Program-made: the position numbers and the translations under genes | Part shown: positions 7,369 to 18,748 of the stretch, piece after piece | Position numbering within the stretch: position 1 is the stretch's first letter | How the letters are laid out: each line of letters begins with the position of its first letter | Assembly: GCA_963727445.1 (NCBI GenBank) | Contig: CAVSGI010000010.1 | Span: 416,001 to 480,000 of the forward strand | From: an uncultured delta proteobacterium | GTDB lineage: Bacteria > Myxococcota_A > Polyangia > Polyangiales > B10-G4 | Direction: 5' to 3' | Length of the DNA stretch: 64,000 nt | Notes under the pieces: model-generated | The model's database searches: none | Told to the model about the DNA's origin: nothing | What the model saw: only the letters and a program-made list of their open reading frames with translations

Positions 7369-9753
<2,385 letters not shown>

Positions 9754-9788: not shown

Positions 9789-10901
9789 CTACATGCAGTC
9801 GAGGCTCAGGACCTCGAGTTGGTTGCCGTTCGAGACGAGGAGGTGCTCGCCGTCGCGCAGTGAGTAGAAGGGGTCGCCGCTGCTTGCCAGGGTGCCGATG
9901 ATACGGGGTGCGGAAGCGGGGGAGAGGTCGACGACCTGGATGCCACCTGCGCCGACGAAGGCGAGGCTGCCCGAGAGGCTGATGCCCAGACCGCCGCCGC
10001 CGGGATCCGAAGGCGGGGGCAGGGTGCCGACGGTGCGACCTTCCGTGAGCTCGATGCTCTGCACCAGCGGATCTGTCCCGACGACGTGCACGAGCGTGCC
10101 GTCGATGGCGCCCCGGCGCCGGAGCACCGTGTCTCCTGCGAGGGGCAGGCTGGTCACGATCGCGGGTGCGCTGGGGGTCGAGATGTCGACGCGGATCACG
10201 AGATCGGGACCCGTTTCCCCGAAGCGTCGCGACGAAAGGACGACGAGCCCATCGGTGCGAAAGGGAAGCACGCTGCCGGGCTTGCCCTCGAGGTCGAGTG
10301 AGGCGAAGCGGCTGGGCGCCGAGGGGTCGGAGATGTCGTACGCGTCGAGCGATGCCGTCGATCCCTCTGCGAAGGGCTCGAAGCCGACCCACAGCGTCGT
10401 GCCGCGGACGACGAGATCCGTGACCGCCCCTTCGAGATCGACGCCGCCGATGGGGCGCGGGTCGGTGGGGGTCGACACGTCGAAGACGTCGATGCCCCAG
10501 CTGCCGACGTAGAGGATGTCGTCGTCGAGGGTGACTGCGCCCTCCGAACCGATATGCGACTGCGTGACGCTTCCGAGCAACACCGGTGCGCCTCCGCTCA
10601 CGTCGATCACGTCGAGGCTCGCGCCGCTCCGGTAGGCGAGGCCGTCGGGATGACGCGCGAAGGGGCCCTGACAGAAGCAGCCCTCGCCCACGCCACCCAG
10701 GCTCTCGCCGGTGCAGGCGCTGGGGGTGGCGGCGTCGACGATCGCGTCAAGTCCAGCCGAGCCGTCCGGGATCGTCGACACGTCGGGAGGGGCGGACCCA
10801 TCGGGCGCGGCGTCGGGGACCGCGCCGCCATCGAAGCCGTCGTGGCTGGTGCCACAGGCGGCGAGGACGAAGATGGCGAGCGTGACAAAGCGCGTGGGCA
10901 T
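9789..10901 (-). CDS. LVIVD-repeat beta-propeller lipoprotein
   Basis: LAAC lipobox; repeats IDVFDVSTPTDP, LDAYDISDPSAP, RVDISTPSAP, VVDLSPASAP. Confidence 0.75.
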   Translation of the reverse strand: MPTRFVTLAIFVLAACGTSHDGFDGGAVPDAAPDGSAPPDVSTIPDGSAGLDAIVDAATPSACTGESLGGVGEGCFCQGPFARHPDGLAYRSGASLDVIDVSGGAPVLLGSVTQSHIGSEGAVTLDDDILYVGSWGIDVFDVSTPTDPRPIGGVDLEGAVTDLVVRGTTLWVGFEPFAEGSTASLDAYDISDPSAPSRFASLDLEGKPGSVLPFRTDGLVVLSSRRFGETGPDLVIRVDISTPSAPAIVTSLPLAGDTVLRRRGAIDGTLVHVVGTDPLVQSIELTEGRTVGTLPPPSDPGGGGLGISLSGSLAFVGAGGIQVVDLSPASAPRIIGTLASSGDPFYSLRDGEHLLVSNGNQLEVLSLDCM

Positions 10902-10956: not shown

Positions 10957-13900
10957 CTATGCCCCCTCTTTATCCCTTCGGGCGAGGCGGCGCTCTTCGA
11001 AGAAGCTGTAGAGAACCGGGACCACGAAGAGGGTGATGAGCTCGATGCTCATCCCGCCGAAGATGGGGATGGCCATCGGCGCCATGACGTCGCCGCCGCG
11101 GCCGGTCGACATGATCACCGGCAGGAGCGCGATGAGGGTCGTGGCGGTGGTCATCAAGCACGGCCGCACACGGCGCTTTCCGGCTTCGACGGTTTGGTGG
11201 CGGACGTCCTCAGCGGTCTGGGGAGGCTCCGCCTCGAGGCGCTGCTTCATGTAGGTGGCGACGATCACGCCGTCGTCGGTGGCGATGCCGATGAGGGCGA
11301 TGAAGCCGACCCAGACCGCGACCGAGAGGTTCATCGGCCCGAGGCCGAGGAGCTGCGCGATGCTCTCGGGGACGAAGGGCAGGTGGCCCCAGAGCCAGAG
11401 CAGGATGATGCCGCCGCTCAGCGCCACAGCGACACCGGTGAGGATGGTCAACGCCACCGTGCTCCGGCGGAACTGGAGGTAGAGCAGCATGAAGACCAGC
11501 GCGATGGTGACGGGCACCAATAGCCCGAGGCGGTGCTCACTGCGTACCTGGTTTTCGTAGGTGCCGGCGAAGGAGAAGGTCACCCCGGCGGGGCGTTCGA
11601 TCAAGTCGGCGTCGATGGCGGCTTCGAGGCGCGCGCGTGCCGCCTCCACAGCTTCGACCTCGGCGACGTCCACCTCCTTGTCGAAGAGGACGTAGGCGGT
11701 CGGGAAGGAGTCCTCGCTCTTGATGACCTGGGGGCCGCGCACGTACTCGAGGGTCGCGAGTTGCTCGAGAGGGATTTCCTCGCCCATGGGCGTGGAGACG
11801 CGCACTCGGCCGATCGCCTCGACGCTGTCGCGCTCCTCCCGGGGGTAGCGCACGCGGACCGCGAAGCGCTCGCGACCCTCGATGGTGCGGGTCACGGTCT
11901 GACCGCCCAGCGCGGTCTGGATCACGCGCTGCACAGCTTCGATGGTGAGCCCGTAGCGACCGAGCGCTTCTCGGTCGAGATCGATCTCGAGGTAGGGCTT
12001 GCCCACCACGCGGTCGGCGAAGACTGTCTCGCGACGAAGCTGCGGGACTTCCTTGAGCACCTCCTCGGCGGCGAAGGCGAAGGCCTCGATCGATTCGAGG
12101 TCGGGGCCCCGGATCTTGAGCCCCATGGGCGCGCGCATGCCCGATCTGAAGCATCACGATGCGGGTGGAGATGGGTTGAAGAAAGGGCGCCGACGTGAGG
12201 CCCGGCATGGAAGCCGCGGCGACGATCTCGTCCCAGATGTCGTGTGAGGTCCGGATGTGATCGCGCCAGTTTCGGACGCGGTTGCCTTCGTCGTCCTCCG
12301 TGTACTCGGGGACGAAGGTGATCAATGTCTCGATCATGGAGACCGGCGCCGGGTCGAGGGCGCTGTCGATGCGTCCGAGCTTGCCCACGACGCGGTCGAC
12401 CTCGGGCACGTTGGCGATCGCCGCGTCGAGACGGCTGAGCATCTCCTCCACTTCCCCGATGGACGCGTGGGGCATGGTGGAGGGCATGTACAGGAACGCG
12501 CCTTCGTCGAAGGGCGGCATGTACTCGTGGCCCAGGCCGGGAAAGACGGTCGTCAACTTTCGCACCGGCGTGCTGGTGCGGATAGCGTCGGGCAGAAACG
12601 ACGTCAGGCGATCCGCGCCGAACCAACAGAACGCGCCGCCGATGACGAGGAGCAGAGGGGTCGCCAGAAACGCGGCGCGATTTGCGAGGAAGAAGCGAAG
12701 CAGTGTCTCGTAGAAGTGCCGGAAGAGGGCGAAGGAGCCCAGGATCAGGCCCGAGGTCGAGAGGACGAAGAGAGTGTTGACGAAGAGCCCGGCGTCGGGG
12801 CCGAGCGGCTGCCAGTCGCGACCGAGGAGCACGGCGACGCCGAGCACGGCGACGGCGATGAACACGTCGATGAGGCGGCGGCGCTTCTTGGCGGCCGGGT
12901 CATCGGTCGCGGCGCTCTGGCGACGGAGGAAGAGACGGGCGGCGGCGGGGAGGATCGAGCGCGGCGATCAGGAACGACGCGATCAAGGCGAAAGTCTTGG
13001 TCGCGGCGAGCGGGGTGAAGAGCTTGCCTTCGGAGGCGGTGAGCGCGAAGACGGGCAAGAAGCTCACGACCGTGGTCGCGGTCGAGGTGAGGACGGCGGG
13101 CGCGACCTCCGCGGCGCCCTCCTCGATGACCTTCACCCGCGACTCGGTCGGCTCGCGCTCGTCGAGGTGCCGCTGCACGTTCTCGACGATGACGATGCCC
13201 ATGTCGACCATGGTCCCGATCGCGATCGCGATGCCGGCGAGGGCCATCACGTTGGCGTCGACCCCGAAGGTCTTCATCGCCACGAAAGCGCCGAGGACTC
13301 CGAGGGGGAGGAGCCCCGCGACCAGCGTGGCGCTCCGCGGATCACGGAGCATCACCAGCACCACCAGGAGCGCTATGAGGATTCTGCGACCAGAGCGCTG
13401 ACGAGAGCGTGGAGAGGGTCTCCTCGATGAGCTCGGCGCGATCGTAGAAGGGGACGATGCTGACCTTCGAGACGCGCCCATCCTCGAGGGTGCGCTCGGG
13501 GAGCCCGCCCGCGATCTCCTCGATCTTGGCGTGGACGCGCTGGATCACCTCCATCGGGTTTTCGCCATAGCGAACGACCACCACCCCGCCGACCACCTCG
13601 GCGCCTTCGTCGTCGAGGACTCCCCGGCGCGGGGCCGGGCCGAGCGCGACGTGCCCCACGTCGCGAACGCGGATCGGGGTGTTGCTCGCGGCTGGCGATG
13701 ACGGTGCTCTCGAGATCGGACAGGTCCTGAACGAGACCGAGCCCGCGCACCAGATACTCGACGCGGTTGACCTCGAGGGTGCGGGCGCCGACGTCGAGGT
13801 TGGTGCCGCGGAGCGCGCGGACGACGTCGTCGAGGCGCAGGTCGGCCGCGGCCAGGGCTTCGGGATCGACGTCCACCTGATATTCGCGGACGTGGCCCCC

Positions 13901-14491
13901 GATGGAGGCGACCTCGGCTACGCCGGGCACCGACTGCAGGGCGTAACGCACCGTGAAATCCTGCAGAGCCCGAAGCTCGTGGAGGGCCCAACCGCCGGCG
14001 AGGGCTCCGTCCTCGTCGTGCCCTTCGAGGGTGTACCAATAGACCTGGCCGAGGGCGGTGGCGTCGGGGCCGAGGGTGGGGGTGGCGTCGGGAGGAAGTG
14101 TATCCGGCGGCAGGGCGGCGAGCTTTTCGAGGACGCGGGAGCGCGCCCAGTAGAACTCCACGTCGTCCTCGAAGATGACGTAGATGGTGGAAAAGCCGAG
14201 CATCGAGCTCGAGCGCACGGTGCGCACGCCCGGCATGCCGAGGAGCGCCGTCGTCAGCGGATAGGTGACCTGGTCCTCGACGTCGCGCGGCGAGCGTCCG
14301 GCCCACTCCGTGAAGACGATCTGCTGGTTTTCGCCGACATCGGGGATGGCGTCGACCGGGACGCGCTCGCGCGGGATGCCGCCGTAGTCGTGATCGAAGG
14401 GCGAAGTCGAGAGGCCGCCCAGGATCAACAGACCCACCAGCACCACCGCCGCCGCCGGGCTCTCGACGAAGAAGCCGATGACGCGCGACAT
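10957..14491 (-). CDS. cusA: CusA/CzcA-family heavy-metal RND permease (four apparent +1 frameshifts)
   Basis: Five collinear fragments: DAIPDVGENQQIVFTEW, GIAIAIGTMVDMGIV, YMPPFDEGAFLYMP, GIATDDG, RPCLMTTATT. Shifts near 13685, 13383, 12956 and 12144. Confidence 0.9.
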
Positions 14492-16458
14492 CAGTGCATG
14501 TCTCCGTCGTCGACGCGTTGGAGAGTCATCCCGCAGATGGGGCAGCGGCCCGGCTGGGGCTCGCGAATCTGCGGGTGCATGGGGCAGGTGTAAACGTGCG
14601 CATTCTCGTTCCCGTTCCCGCGCGCGTTCCCATTCCCGTTCCCGCGCGCGTTCCCGTTCCCGCGCGCGTTCCCGTTCCCGTTCCCGCGCGCGTTCCCGTT
14701 CCCGTTCCCGCCCGCCGGCGGATACGCCTCTCTCTCGGTCCCGCAGGTGCGCATCTCCTCGCCGAAGTAGGCGTTGTCGACCTCGGCGCTCCGCTGGACC
14801 CAGTCGGCACCAGCGAAGTCGAAGGCCATGGGGCAGTGGATGCGGTGAGCGCTTTCGTCGGTGGGGTTGCCGAAGGTCTCGAAGACCGAGATCGCCGCCG
14901 TGCTCGCGCGGTGGAATGCCTGGCGGGCGACATCGAGGGAGCGCGCGCCGTGAATGTCGTGGCCGGCGTCGATGAGCGTCCGGCGCATCGGCGCCCAGGC
15001 TTCCGCGGCATCGGCCGGCGCCGTGGGGGCGAAGGCCTCTGCCGCCTCCATCATGGCGTGCGCCGCATGCTTGGCGGCCTCGAGGTCGTCGGCGGCCAGG
15101 GCGGTGCTCAGGTCGAGGTAGGGGTCCATCACGGACGCGAGGGACAGCCGGAAGGCGCTGCCGATGCTCTGCGCCAGGGCCCCGGGGGCCGTGCGATTGT
15201 CGGGGTGCATCATCATCGAATGGCCACCACGGATCTGGAGCTCGGCGTCGATGGCGAAGGCGCCTTCGACGACGACCACCTCACCCTCGGCGAGTCCGGA
15301 CAGGACCGGGTAGACGTCACCGGACCGCGGCCCGAGGCGAACGCTCCGCGGCGCGTAGGTCGGCGTATCCATGCCCGCGACTTCGACGTAGACGATGGAG
15401 CGCCGGCCGGTGAAGAGGGGCGCAGAGGCGGGGATCACCAGCGGTGACTCCGCTTCGGTGCTCTGCACCTCGACCATCGCCTCGACGAACATGCCTGGCC
15501 TCAGGCGCCCCTCTTGAGAGTCGACCTCCACCCGCACGTGCGCCGTGCGCCGCATGGGATCGACGATCGGATCGACGAAGACCACGTGACCTTCGAGCAC
15601 CTCGCCGGGTAGCCCCTCGACGGTGAAGGTCACGGACTGCCCCTCGGCGAGGAGCGGTAGATCGCTCTCGTAGGCGTCGAGCTCCACCCAGAGCTTGTCG
15701 AGATCCGCGAGGCGATAGAGGACCGCGCCGGTCGAGACGTAGCTGCCCTCGGTGGCGACCCTTTCGAGCACCGTGCCGCTGAAGGGAGAGCGGATGCGCA
15801 CGGTGCGCGTCGGCGCGGACGCGTTCTCCATGCTCGCGACCTCCGCGTCGGGCAAGCCGAGCAGGCGCAGGCGCTGCCGCGCGGACTCGAGCGTGGCTTC
15901 GGCCGCGCGCCGCGCGGTTCCGGTGCCCGCCGAGAGGCGCGCGAGCTGCTGTCTGGCGACCAGCAGGTCCTGGTGCGCTGCGTAGACCTCCGGGCTGTAG
16001 AGCGTGGCGATGACCTGGCCGCGCCGGATGCGCTCCCCCGTCACGTCGACGTGGAGCCGCTCGATGCGACCGCCGATCCACGCCGTCACCTCGCGCCGCG
16101 TCGACTCGTCCGGGGAGATCTCGCCCAACAGACGTCGCGCACCTGCCGCGCCGGCGCGATGCACGACCGCCGTGCGCACCTGGGCCAGCGTCTTGGCGCG
16201 TTCGCTGAGCTGGACCTCCTCGCCGGTTTGCAGATCGCTGACGGGGATCAGGTCCATCCCGCAGATCGGGCACTGGCCAGGCTCGTTCGAGCGCACCTGC
16301 GGGTGCATGGCGCAGGTGTATTCGACCGTCTCGCCTTCCTCCGCGGTCGGCTCGGGTGTCGCCATGGCGCAGGTGCCGAAGACGAAAGCGAGGGTCGCCA
16401 CCAATGGCAGGAGGAGCCACGGACCGTATCGGAAGAGGTCTTCCTTTCGCTCACTCAT
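14491..16458 (-). CDS. cusB: CusB-family periplasmic adaptor with HMBDs at both ends and a DUF3347-like domain
   Basis: YTCAMHP..CPICGMDL, YSPEVYAAHQD, LRPGMF, HCPMAF..W..NAYFGEEMRTCG, C-terminal YTCPMHP..CPICGMTL. Confidence 0.9.
   Translation of the reverse strand: MSERKEDLFRYGPWLLLPLVATLAFVFGTCAMATPEPTAEEGETVEYTCAMHPQVRSNEPGQCPICGMDLIPVSDLQTGEEVQLSERAKTLAQVRTAVVHRAGAAGARRLLGEISPDESTRREVTAWIGGRIERLHVDVTGERIRRGQVIATLYSPEVYAAHQDLLVARQQLARLSAGTGTARRAAEATLESARQRLRLLGLPDAEVASMENASAPTRTVRIRSPFSGTVLERVATEGSYVSTGAVLYRLADLDKLWVELDAYESDLPLLAEGQSVTFTVEGLPGEVLEGHVVFVDPIVDPMRRTAHVRVEVDSQEGRLRPGMFVEAMVEVQSTEAESPLVIPASAPLFTGRRSIVYVEVAGMDTPTYAPRSVRLGPRSGDVYPVLSGLAEGEVVVVEGAFAIDAELQIRGGHSMMMHPDNRTAPGALAQSIGSAFRLSLASVMDPYLDLSTALAADDLEAAKHAAHAMMEAAEAFAPTAPADAAEAWAPMRRTLIDAGHDIHGARSLDVARQAFHRASTAAISVFETFGNPTDESAHRIHCPMAFDFAGADWVQRSAEVDNAYFGEEMRTCGTEREAYPPAGGNGNGNARGNGNGNARGNGNARGNGNGNARGNGNENAHVYTCPMHPQIREPQPGRCPICGMTLQRVDDGDMH
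14602..14710 (-). repeat. In-frame (GGGAAC)n/GCGCGC tandem repeat encoding a GNGNGNAR linker in cusB
   Basis: Directly visible 18-24 bp units. Confidence 0.9.
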
Positions 16459-17815
16459 CGCCCGCCTCCCGTCGCTCCACGCGCGAGCCCACCGCGTGCT
16501 CGAGACGCGCCCACGCTGTCGCGTGCTCTGCGCGCGCGTTCACCTCCTCGACGCCGATCTCGATCAACGCCGACACCGCCCAGAGCACTTGCGCGATGTC
16601 GGCTTGGCCCGCCGAATAGCCTCCCAGTGCGGCCTCGTAGGCACCCTCTGCCTGCGGGACGAGCGTATTTTCGTAGAGGAGCACGCGGCGCGCCGAGTCG
16701 CGCACCTGCGAGAGCGCCACACTCATCGCCTCCTCGGCGTGGTCGGCCGCGGCTTCACCCGCCGCCCGGGAAGCGGCCGCTTCGGCGTGACGCGCCTCGG
16801 CGGCCTCGCGGTAGGTGCCGTACCAGAGCGGCACGCTGACCGCGACGGAGACGATCAGCGGGTCCTTGCCGCTGCCCTGCACCCCCGCTGTGACGGCGCT
16901 GCCGGTCTCGATCCAGTCGAAGCCCAGCTCGAAGCTCGGCAGACCGCGCGCGGCCTCGGCATCCCCCGCCGTATCCTGAGACGCCGCGTCCTGTTCGAAG
17001 GCGGCGACGCTGGGATGCGACCGCGCCATCGCGCGCATCGTCTCTTCGTCGGTCGCGGGGAGGGCGACCTGGGTCGGGTCTTCGGCGGTGGGGAGCGCCA
17101 CCTCCGAGCCCACGCCGAGGACCGCTCGGAGCTCGGCGGCGGCGGCTCGCTGCATCTGTCGGTGCCGGTCGCGGTGGTCGTGGTGGCGCTCGACCCGGAG
17201 ATCGAGCTGCGCGAGGTCGCCCACGTTCGCCTGCCCGATCTCGACCCGCGCGCGCACGGTCTCGAGGAGCGCGTCGAGGAGCCCGTCCTGATCCGCGAGC
17301 AGCGCGTGGATGCGGCGGATCCGCCAGAGCTCGTAGTACGCTTCCACGACGCGCCGCTCCACAGCGAGGGCCTCCGCTTCGAAGCGCTCGCTGGCGGCGC
17401 GCGCCGCGAGGGCAGCGGACTCGCCTCCCGCGCTCACCTGTGTCGGCCAGGGGAGGCGTTGCCTCAAGCCCACCCGATGGCGCTGCGGACCCACCCGCGT
17501 CTCGACGCTGCGGATGAAGTAGCCGTAGCTCACCATCGGGTCCGGCAGACGCCGCGCGCCGGAGATGCGGAGCGTGGCCGCCTTCCATCGCCCGTAGCTC
17601 GCTTCGAGCGTCGGGCTCTCGGCGAGGGCGTGGGTGACGTAGGCCTGCACCGACCCGTCGAAGCTCGGCGCGCCTTCCCGTTGGGCTTCGGCAGCACGTT
17701 CACGCCCGAAACGGCGCAGATCACTGCGAACGCTCTGCTCCGTGCTGCCTGCACATCCCGCGATCGCCACGACGAGCGTCGCGATCGCCATCTTCCTCTG
17801 ACTCATCTCCATCAC
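16451..17815 (-). CDS. TolC/CusC-family outer-membrane factor
   Basis: IAGC lipobox, LPDP, QRLPW, SVPLW, LYENTLVPQAE; position next to cusB. Confidence 0.9.
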   Translation of the reverse strand: MMEMSQRKMAIATLVVAIAGCAGSTEQSVRSDLRRFGRERAAEAQREGAPSFDGSVQAYVTHALAESPTLEASYGRWKAATLRISGARRLPDPMVSYGYFIRSVETRVGPQRHRVGLRQRLPWPTQVSAGGESAALAARAASERFEAEALAVERRVVEAYYELWRIRRIHALLADQDGLLDALLETVRARVEIGQANVGDLAQLDLRVERHHDHRDRHRQMQRAAAAELRAVLGVGSEVALPTAEDPTQVALPATDEETMRAMARSHPSVAAFEQDAASQDTAGDAEAARGLPSFELGFDWIETGSAVTAGVQGSGKDPLIVSVAVSVPLWYGTYREAAEARHAEAAASRAAGEAAADHAEEAMSVALSQVRDSARRVLLYENTLVPQAEGAYEAALGGYSAGQADIAQVLWAVSALIEIGVEEVNARAEHATAWARLEHAVGSRVERREAGDE

Positions 17816-17932
17816 CTCTCGCAGAGAGATCCGTTTGGTCCTCCGTCGTACGGACGGCGGCCCATCGCCAAACCGGCGAGGCTCAGGCGACCACTGCGCG
17901 CACGAAAGCCGTGGCGGCGGTCGCCGCGCGGA

Positions 17933-18322
17933 TCAGATCACGAGGACGATGGTGCGCGTCGGCGGCGCCCGATCCGGTGGACGTTCGACGATCGGTCGAA
18001 AGCCGCGCGGGTCGGGACCCTGGCTTCCGTGCAGCGCGCCGAGCGGCGCGTGGAGGATGGCGAGGGGGGGGCCGCCGATCTCGGGCGTCGAGGCGGTCGT
18101 GGAGGAGGGCGAGCTGTCCGCGACGAAAGGCCGCTGACAGCAGCTGTGATGAACGCGCTCGACAGCCGGCGCTTCGTCGTGGGCGCAGCAGCCGGGGATC
18201 GGAGGCGCGACCTCGAGCCGCGAGTAGCACTCGTCCAGCCCCACGAGGGTCTGCCCGGAGACCGCGAGGGTCATCAGGGACAGGAGGGCGGCGACAGAGC
18301 CTCTGAGGATCGCGCGGAGCAC
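17933..18322 (-). CDS. Putative CutF/CruR (DUF2946-like) leader protein with a C-terminal RAPP motif
   Basis: Signal-like N-terminus, GCCAH and HHSCC, C-terminus ERPPDRAPPTRTIVLVI*. Start chosen just downstream of a predicted promoter. Confidence 0.65.
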   Translation of the reverse strand: MLRAILRGSVAALLSLMTLAVSGQTLVGLDECYSRLEVAPPIPGCCAHDEAPAVERVHHSCCQRPFVADSSPSSTTASTPEIGGPPLAILHAPLGALHGSQGPDPRGFRPIVERPPDRAPPTRTIVLVI

Positions 18323-18332
18323 GACGACCACA

Positions 18333-18400
18333 ATTATGTGCGGCCCGATGCTCCCGTTGCAAGCTGAGCACTTTACGCCTGCGCAAGCGTTCCGTAGCGT
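18333..18400. promoter_or_regulatory. Back-to-back sigma70-like promoters
   Basis: Minus strand: TTGCAA(18362-57)-N18-CATAAT(18338-33). Plus strand: TTTACG(18372-77)-N17-TAGCGT(18395-400), 6 nt before ATG 18407. Confidence 0.55.
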
Positions 18401-18406
18401 TCGGGC

Positions 18407-18748
18407 ATGTCCCCAATTCGTCTGGCCGTCGCTCTCCTCGTCCTCCTCTCGGCTTGCGACGACGTGGCCGAGGCGCCCGCCGAGGGGCCGGTGCGTCACG
18501 CGATCGAGGTCGACGCCCACGGTTACCACCCGGATCGCGTCGAGGCGCGGGCAGGGGAGCCCGTGACCCTCGTCTTCACGCGCACCACCGAAGAGGGCTG
18601 CGGCGACGAGCTGGTGATCGAGAGCGAAGGGATCCGCCGCGAACTGCCCGTCGGTGAGGCGGTGGAGGTCACCTTCACCCCGGAGGCCGGCGAGGTGAGC
18701 TTCGCCTGTGGCATGAACATGTACCGCGGCACCGTCGTCGTTCGGTGA
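18407..18748 (+). CDS. Cupredoxin-domain lipoprotein (CupA-like)
   Basis: LSAC lipobox; GYHPDRV, EGCGDEL, FACGMNMYRG. Confidence 0.85.
   Translation: MSPIRLAVALLVLLSACDDVAEAPAEGPVRHAIEVDAHGYHPDRVEARAGEPVTLVFTRTTEEGCGDELVIESEGIRRELPVGEAVEVTFTPEAGEVSFACGMNMYRGTVVVR

Follow-up and report, generated by a model that had tools for sequence, protein, structure and literature searches.

To our knowledge, only two CutF-like leaders have a worked-out mechanism: CutF itself, in which a stalled ribosome switches expression on, and CruR, in which release of the ribosome switches expression off via Rho. CutF of Rhodobacter capsulatus ends in PPPRL, carries a CxxxC motif and has its stem-loop in the intergenic region, where stalling promotes expression of the genes that follow (bioRxiv 10.1101/2025.02.05.636593; PMC9973294). 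CruR of Bordetella pertussis, a DUF2946 protein, carries CxxC and has RAPP three residues from its end, a dispensable signal peptide and a role in the Rho-dependent shut-off of an uptake gene (PMC9426467). It stalls at RAPP, RAPP and RGPP arrest being robust and refractory to EF-P (PMC12992588), and copper has been proposed to relieve this stalling (PMC9426467; bioRxiv 2025.02.05.636593). Beyond copper, SecM-type and RQH peptides stall to melt a stem-loop before sec or yidC genes, which are thereby turned on (PMC10987492). The puzzle addressed here is how a strong, EF-P-resistant RAPP arrest could switch export on in copper.

Leaders of this general kind are numerous. The accessible part of the Ozturk 2023 survey describes 5,334 CutF-like proteins with varied Cys/His motifs, among which SilD and CusD are labelled, gives OEP genes as their commonest neighbours and publishes 29 clusters (PMC9973294). 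As far as that part of the survey goes, a leader ahead of a CusC-type gene is therefore not new, and its cluster list may already hold members of the family described below. Here we examine such a leader in an uncultured delta proteobacterium, within a 64,000-nt stretch of contig CAVSGI010000010.1 (GenBank assembly GCA_963727445.1, positions 416,001 to 480,000 of the forward strand) that we call the window and whose coordinates are used throughout.

Gene neighbourhood of the leader

The first-pass annotation of the window had placed a short Cys/His-rich ORF at the head of a co-oriented run tolC-cusB-cusA-LVIVD-copA, and domain scans confirmed this gene order. The genes concerned are:

16451..17806, minus strand: tolC/cusC-type outer-membrane factor (OEP/TolC; PF02321, E 2.5e-30; ORF from 17815)
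17818-17812, minus strand: SD-like GAGGTGA of tolC
14491..16458, minus strand: cusB-type adaptor with two HMBD domains and DUF3347, its start overlapping the tolC stop
10957..14491, minus strand: cusA-type RND pump in four frameshifted pieces in the assembly (four ACR_tran pieces matching successive parts of the profile)
9789..10901, minus strand: LVIVD-repeat lipoprotein-like gene (profile scan)
7369..9753, minus strand: CopA-type P1B ATPase with YHS and HMBD domains (TIGR01511, 592.9 bits against a cut-off of 397)
18407..18748, plus strand: divergent cupredoxin-like gene (PF13473, E 3e-16), 84 nt from the leader start

The OEP gene begins 126 nt downstream of the leader in the same orientation, and its likely start is the ATG at 17806, judging from the SD spacing and the lipoprotein signal of the encoded protein. 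By their ORF coordinates cusB and cusA also overlap. The cusA frameshifts, together with a fused OEP-adaptor frame on another contig of the same genome (C14), suggest assembly indels. Towards the end of cusB (14526-14640) there is a GNGNARGN-type repeat linker ahead of the C-terminal HMBD domain.

The annotation had also reported that no CueR, CsoR or CusSR gene lies in the cluster, and our scan of the neighbouring ORFs agreed, with none of these and no other two-component gene among them. A search of the genome, which is 86% complete, gave no CsoR (PF02583); five MerR-type matches, all below the CueR cut-off, lie elsewhere in it, the nearest about 360 kb away.

Features of the leader and its RNA

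The ORF call reproduced the annotated 129-aa frame at 18322-17933 (minus strand) with its GCCAH and HHSCC clusters, Ser/Pro-rich linker and C-terminal ending, and the RAPP codons were found at 17971-17960 as reported. The annotated features stand as they were given; what had been overlooked were a fifth invariant Cys (C32), the divergent cupredoxin gene and the predicted pairing between leader tail and tolC. The features of the leader and its transcript are:

17933..18322, minus strand: leader ORF, 129 aa, GTG start, ending in ERPPDRAPPTRTIVLVI followed by the stop (homologues and synteny)
18333..18362, minus strand: sigma-70-like promoter, with -35 TTGCAA at 18362-18357, an 18-nt spacer and -10 CATAAT at 18338-18333
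18254..18322, minus strand: signal-peptide-like N-terminus, about residues 1-23, with a putative cleavage site (hydrophobic window)
18137..18229, minus strand: Cys cluster C32 .. C45C46 .. C61C62 (C32, C45, C61 and C62 in 44/44 aligned rows, C46 in 43/44)
17975..17986, minus strand: site 1, ERPP (E113-P116), the family's arrest-motif slot as placed by spacing
17960..17971, minus strand: site 2, RAPP (R118-P121), a second, clade-limited RxPP (8 closest rows)
17928..17952, minus strand: 5' arm of a predicted long-range helix, made of the last 6 codons, the stop and the 5 nt after it (pair probabilities)
17788..17813, minus strand: 3' arm of that helix, made of the tolC initiation region with the likely start ATG 17806 and the first codons (folding)

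We regard the ORF as more than a chance frame because it has a promoter, protein searches returned 7 close homologues at 56-75% identity, and homologous ORFs occupy the same place in other genomes. The promoter, TTGCAA-18-CATAAT, ends 11 nt 5' of the leader start (1 found against 0.1 expected), and in relatives TAnnnT stands 4-14 nt 5' of an in-frame start in 23/53 loci against 1/53 internal control windows, the query locus with its CATAAT not being among the 23. Because these elements lie so close to the leader start, the leader mRNAs are probably near-leaderless or carry a very short leader of their own. A hydrophobic 11-residue window scoring at least 1.8 was present in 36/36 scorable aligned rows (2.29 in the query leader), and the Cys cluster could form either a Cu(I)/Ag(I) site or a disulfide site.

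Comparison with described leaders and arrest peptides

Judged by its sequence, the ORF is a genuine, conserved CutF/CruR-like leader of a known kind and not a member of DUF2946. The CutF/CruR-type leader proposed in the first-pass annotation is supported by the hydrophobic N-terminus in all 36 rows, by the invariance of C32, C45, C61, C62 and P116 and by the metal-efflux genes downstream. It also falls within the rules of the Ozturk 2023 survey. With 129 aa and a hydrophobic N-terminal window it agrees with the rule of <150 aa plus an N-terminal signal peptide, its P115-P116 lie 15 residues and its P120-P121 10 residues from the end where the survey looks for PP within the last 15, and its five conserved Cys and the OEP gene at 126 nt correspond to the rule of a Cys/His motif plus a co-oriented metal gene within 1 kb. 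The survey's PP filter would miss family members whose sole PP stands 16-19 residues from the end.

Like CutF, the protein is a small Sec-type leader with a Cys motif and a C-terminal PP that stands first in a copper-detoxifying operon, and a helix is predicted to hide the next SD. It differs in its Cys pattern, C..CC..CC, and in its main PP, which stands 15 codons before the end; the leader's final codons themselves supply the 5' arm of the helix, and a ribosome at the main slot would not cover them. In CruR, too, a RAPP-type slot follows the Cys motif at a set distance (45 residues there, about 51 here) and copper is proposed to free the ribosome. The outcome would differ: in the present leader the freed ribosome would expose a start site and export would come on. 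PF11162 gave no match. The resemblance to ApdA, ApdP, RQH and SecM lies in the RAPP, RGPP or RAGP that fills the slot in 49/95 leaders and in the secretion signal; the query slot reads ERPP, outside the (R/Q/H)(A/G/D)(P/G/S)(P/G) pattern as given in the accessible parts of the RAPP-class reports (PMC10987492, PMC12992588). The family HYC_CC_PP (NF047658) has, to judge by its name, a comparable arrangement of Cys motif, CC and PP, and with 131 positions it is of comparable length. The query has no HYC motif, and NF047658 had no match at E up to 1 in the query genome or in five genomes with related leaders.

Distribution and conservation of the family

To avoid circularity, loci were gathered through tolC orthologues and not through the leader. 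A close orthologue was present in 80/401 genomes of the order, giving 82 loci, three of them with short upstream sequence; a leader lies directly upstream in 34/82 of these loci, and 48/82 are without one. A profile built from 11 rows gave 39 matches. Profile matches were present in 35/401 genomes of the order, and in a phylum-wide sample they occurred in 7/401 genomes, all of the same order. A single-sequence search of 401 genomes returned one clear relative only, most of its weak matches having internal stops. No paralogue of the query's leader subfamily was found in its own genome, and pattern scans of metagenome contigs and genome contigs found no related loci. Among 11 further loci that were scanned, the gene after the leader was OEP in 8 and an HMBD-bearing CusB in 1, and in 2 it had no family. 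A quick tree of 94 rows, made with the last 22 residues removed and L016 left out, leaves 48/91 forks open and gives no order for the changes of motif.

Across the 44-row alignment P116 is as invariant as the four fully kept Cys. The expectation that signal peptide and CC motifs would be conserved in relatives was borne out (hydrophobic N-terminus in 36/36 rows, Cys in 43-44 of 44), and so was the use of CC rather than CxxC, the pattern being C..CC..CC. The His part of the proposed Cys/His clusters fared otherwise, with H48 in 8/44, H58 in 7/44 and H59 in 4/44 rows. The suggested link to DUF2946 found no backing either: PF11162 matched neither the query nor 14 homologues at E up to 10, nor anything in the genome, and no Pfam or NCBIfam family was found for the leader or those homologues. 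In the Atlas the closest clusters consist of unnamed proteins, those of the top two being mostly from Myxococcota, and a cluster with 23% DUF2946 members is listed merely as a near look-alike.

The PP slot

The distance between the Cys cluster and a C-terminal PP motif defines a slot in these leaders. CruR has CxxC about 45 residues before RAPP; here the last CC of C..CC..CC precedes the first Pro by 49-54 aa in 89/95 leaders (53 in the query). CruR also has its motif at the very C-terminus, and here the slot lies 13-19 codons before the stop in 94/95 (15 in the query). Across the 95 leaders, which are distinct but related and hence not independent, the slot reads ERPP in 28, RAPP in 28, RGPP in 15, ARPP in 8, RAGP in 6 and something else in 10, and the ERPPD, RAPP and RGPP classes have equal slot spacing. 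ERPP therefore fills the family slot in the query: its spacings (53 and 15) are the modal ones, and RAPP, with 58 aa to the last CC and 10 codons to the end, is a second site that may still matter.

The annotation had singled out RAPP, which conservation does not bear out as the family motif. ERPPDR is present in 11/11 close rows and RAPP in 5/11 (5/8 of the closest), RAPP occurs in 6/22 ERPPD leaders and RxPP in 12/22, and R[AG]PP within the last 26 aa is a feature of 51/95 leaders. In the 8 closest rows R118, P120 and P121 are invariant and A119 varies (A, S or T), and across the query clade RxPP at site 2 persists and site 1 changes (DGPP, DKPP, RGPP). In one genus the second site is HGPP. 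Of the first-pass reading as a whole, then, the general idea of a CutF/CruR-type leader holds and the RAPP claim holds in part; the conservation of His and the DUF2946 link do not hold.

A second leader in the same genome (L156:670-993 on G000:C14, stop at 430792, plus strand) heads another OEP-adaptor-RND system, whose OEP and adaptor share a single fused frame in the assembly. It has a signal-like N-terminus, HGCPEHGC..HHCGCC and the ending GFRTQLERPPIA followed by the stop, is of a short-tail ERPP type and gave no NCBIfam or Pfam match. Because GFRTQLERPPIA matches the query's GFRPIVERPP over 13 columns, the comparison points to ERPP as a real motif rather than a product of decay. At six other loci (L131, L148, L149, L152, L153 and L155) a SecM-type RAGP occupies the slot, and three of these leaders precede a small lipoprotein and not an OEP gene.

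Predicted pairing between the leader tail and the tolC start

The results in this and the next section are computed, on GC-rich sequence and with an assumed ribosome footprint, and the helix tests cover loci other than those of the seven closest protein homologues, for which protein sequence only was at hand. In the computed fold of the query locus, 17952-17938 paired with probabilities of 0.86-0.97, the strongest pairs lying in the first tolC codons. When the duplex was limited to -24 to +3, the query was unexceptional, with foreign RBS windows as good in 13/30 cases and a fraction of 0.33 for recoded tails, and the folding z-score of the whole region (-0.35) was uninformative.

Across the family the signal is stronger. 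In 31 curated loci, 12 of them from one genus and with L063 (stop read-through) and L108 and L120 (start unclear) omitted, the 24-nt segment that pairs best with the tolC start window lay at the leader stop in 22/31, against about 6% expected. With automatic starts, pairing at the leader stop was found in 19/34 leader loci and in 0/23 leader-less controls, the 23 being what remained of 48 once 25 had no co-oriented upstream gene by the rule used. Since codons for hydrophobic residues are pyrimidine-rich and pair by default with a purine-rich SD, we compared cognate with swapped partners, using one locus from each of 13 lineage groups. Cognate duplexes averaged -23.0 against -17.1 +/- 0.8 kcal/mol for swapped ones, and 0/500 derangements reached the cognate value in each of 200 draws, a comparison that addresses default pairing only in part. 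Natural codons beat synonymous recodings (fraction <0.1) in 18/31 loci, and RNAalifold on 14 related loci, 12 of them from one genus, returned the same helix with 11 pairs, 3 of which had changes on both sides.

Full folding of 19 further loci (L147, at a contig end, and L016 omitted) gave pairing in 13 against 2/23 controls, with little pairing in 6/19; removing three loci seen before the idea was formed leaves 10/16. A simple window scan of these loci was weak, with 3/19 for automatic and 6/19 for curated starts. Taken together, the models predict the tail helix to be an anti-initiation-site element. A near-strain contig (depth 2.2 over 17741-17991) carries 11 differences; the 10 that were listed all fall outside the core helix, too few to count. 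The window also holds an intergenic hairpin at 17922-17889, in which, in the same low-depth contig, the 17917:17894 pair survives a double change and the neighbouring wobble pair is lost through another change.

Ribosome geometry

Placing a ribosome on these models separated the slot from the stop. A footprint at site 1 eased opening of the start region by at least 2 kcal in 3/31 loci and one at the stop in 27/31, with the slot auto-placed too far upstream for L092 and L124; in the further loci the counts were 0/19 and 13/19, and controls with a ribosome at their own stop gave 1/23. The helix begins a median of 26.5 nt after the slot P-site and lies beyond +17 in 38/44 loci. The short-tail ERPP leaders L156 and L016 had no ribosome-dependent opening in the model.

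In the query the helix starts +12 nt from the P-site of RAPP, and modelled start-region opening was 14.7 with the RNA free, 11.5-13.2 with a ribosome at RAPP and 11.5 with one at the stop. A stall at RAPP would thus free the start region to much the same degree as termination at the stop, and therefore both a hand-over from ERPP to RAPP and a CutF-like switch in which stalling turns expression on would fit. A copper-induced stall that opens the SD is something the folding models would allow for RAPP in the query and not for the main slot of the family.

Proposed mechanism and alternatives

We infer, with a confidence that stands about even, that the leader acts in cis as a copper-responsive switch of translation: tolC would stay off as long as a ribosome is paused on the leader and come on once metal releases that ribosome. 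Known arrest motifs (RAPP, RGPP and RAGP) alternate with ERPP at one fixed-distance slot, which supports such a switch, and this polarity is favoured because efflux must rise with copper, which a motif that stalls by default would permit only where stalling shuts the next gene, and because the footprint geometry predicts a shut helix while the ribosome is paused. The mRNA of the leader would be near-leaderless, and Sec would export the peptide while it is being made. As long as metal is absent, the ribosome would dwell at site 1, about 53 residues past the Cys cluster, leaving the helix further on shut. Binding of Cu(I) or Ag(I) by C..CC..CC would alter the pull on the chain and free the pause, as proposed for CruR, after which the ribosome would enter the tail, melt the helix and terminate, so that tolC initiates. 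In the query clade the ribosome would next be caught by RAPP at the edge of the helix, so that the start region stays open for longer. Through the overlaps of start and stop codons cusB and cusA would follow tolC, and copA may be affected as well, by polarity.

Put more generally, this would be a third logic for copper leaders, which we offer tentatively, as possible rather than probable. A default arrest 13-19 codons before the stop would keep an anti-RBS helix in the tail shut and metal-induced release would turn expression on; the conserved hydrophobic tail (VLLI, CSFLN, VLRR) would be an RNA element; ERPP would be an arrest motif, so far undescribed, that can stand in for RAPP, RGPP and RAGP and be replaced by them; and a second RxPP or HGPP stop at the helix edge would in some clades make a ribosome switch with two positions, an off site and an on site. 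The new content lies in the RNA geometry and the ERPP slot. A literature search that took in a minority of subscription papers found no print report of a tail-encoded anti-RBS in such leaders with release as the on signal, and no paper joining ERPP with an arrest peptide. If true, the tail helix would explain the long conserved tail after PP and make predictions at the level of single bases, ERPP would be nominated as a new pause motif, and the leader would offer a compact, factor-free copper sensor for reporters.

The fit of RAPP in the query invites the opposite polarity, which comes nearest to the first-pass annotation and which we think unlikely: copper bound outside the membrane would prolong the RAPP stall, melting the helix and turning tolC on, and ERPP would be secondary. 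CutF acts so (bioRxiv 10.1101/2025.02.05.636593), and the model opens the helix from a RAPP ribosome that sits 12 nt before it. All 8 closest rows keep RxPP with A, S or T at x, a position where A, S and Pro are stall-permissive (PMC12992588, accessible part); A, S and T together make up 57/364 RxPP in the long ORFs of the genome. A second PP occurs in 19/50 loci and stands within +14 of the helix in 12/17 of those with a helix, yet 31/50 have no second PP and most of them keep the helix, the ERPPD-only clade included. At 58 aa from CC the query RAPP also falls outside the 49-54 kept by 89/95 leaders, and arrest at RAPP has been described as constitutive and refractory to EF-P, which sets it apart from the PPP of CutF. 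Improbable in our view is that the helix merely couples tolC to completed translation of the leader, with the PP slot sensing secretion or disulfides or acting as a throttle and metal control being transcriptional, through a distant MerR-type regulator, a two-component system or a metal-dependent ECF sigma factor. Its attractions are the five MerR-type genes elsewhere in the genome, the 48/82 tolC orthologues without a leader, the described control of copper in Myxococcus through CorE and CorSR, and the chance that the five Cys form disulfides, as proposed for CutF without copper (bioRxiv 10.1101/2025.02.05.636593). Such a role sits poorly with a five-Cys pattern and a distance to the PP slot that are both tightly held, and with a next gene that is OEP in 8/11 further loci and an HMBD-bearing CusB in one. 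CueR-type promoters have a 19-nt spacer, and the one found here has 18 nt.

The two remaining readings account for less of what was found. A C-over-G-rich stretch in the linker codons (about 18120-18045, roughly 150 nt before the leader stop; (C-G)/n = 0.295) resembles the rut site of cruR as described in the accessible part of that report (PMC9426467), and the position of the ribosome might accordingly gate Rho termination before or within tolC, with the helix mainly a means of making untranslated RNA. We consider this very unlikely, as the stretch is rut-like in the query locus and not family-wide (above 0.1 at that place in only 8/52 loci), the CruR logic of release followed by termination would shut an efflux operon in copper, and the cognate covariation with the start region would go unexplained. 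Least probable of all, and hardly to be expected, is that the product is a secreted metallothionein-like copper buffer with no role in cis. The signal-like N-terminus and five Cys would suit such a protein, but the arrest motifs in a fixed slot, the tail-RBS helix and the first position in the operon would have no explanation, and the AlphaFold model, a helix at 2-27 plus disorder (pTM 0.28), contains no folded domain.

Loci without a leader

The tolC orthologues that have no leader are preceded by other genes. At several of them (L010, L011, L012, L073, L076 and L103) a cupredoxin-like protein is encoded directly upstream of tolC in the same direction. Six others (L008, L089, L090, L095, L112 and L119) have, by eye, a lookalike of the C-terminal helix-turn-helix of a sigma-54-type response regulator before tolC, which suggests that transcriptional control replaces the leader at those six loci. 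At L100, L102, L104, L109-L111 and L116 tolC follows a small membrane protein starting DHLANERT, which we take to be DUF202-like.
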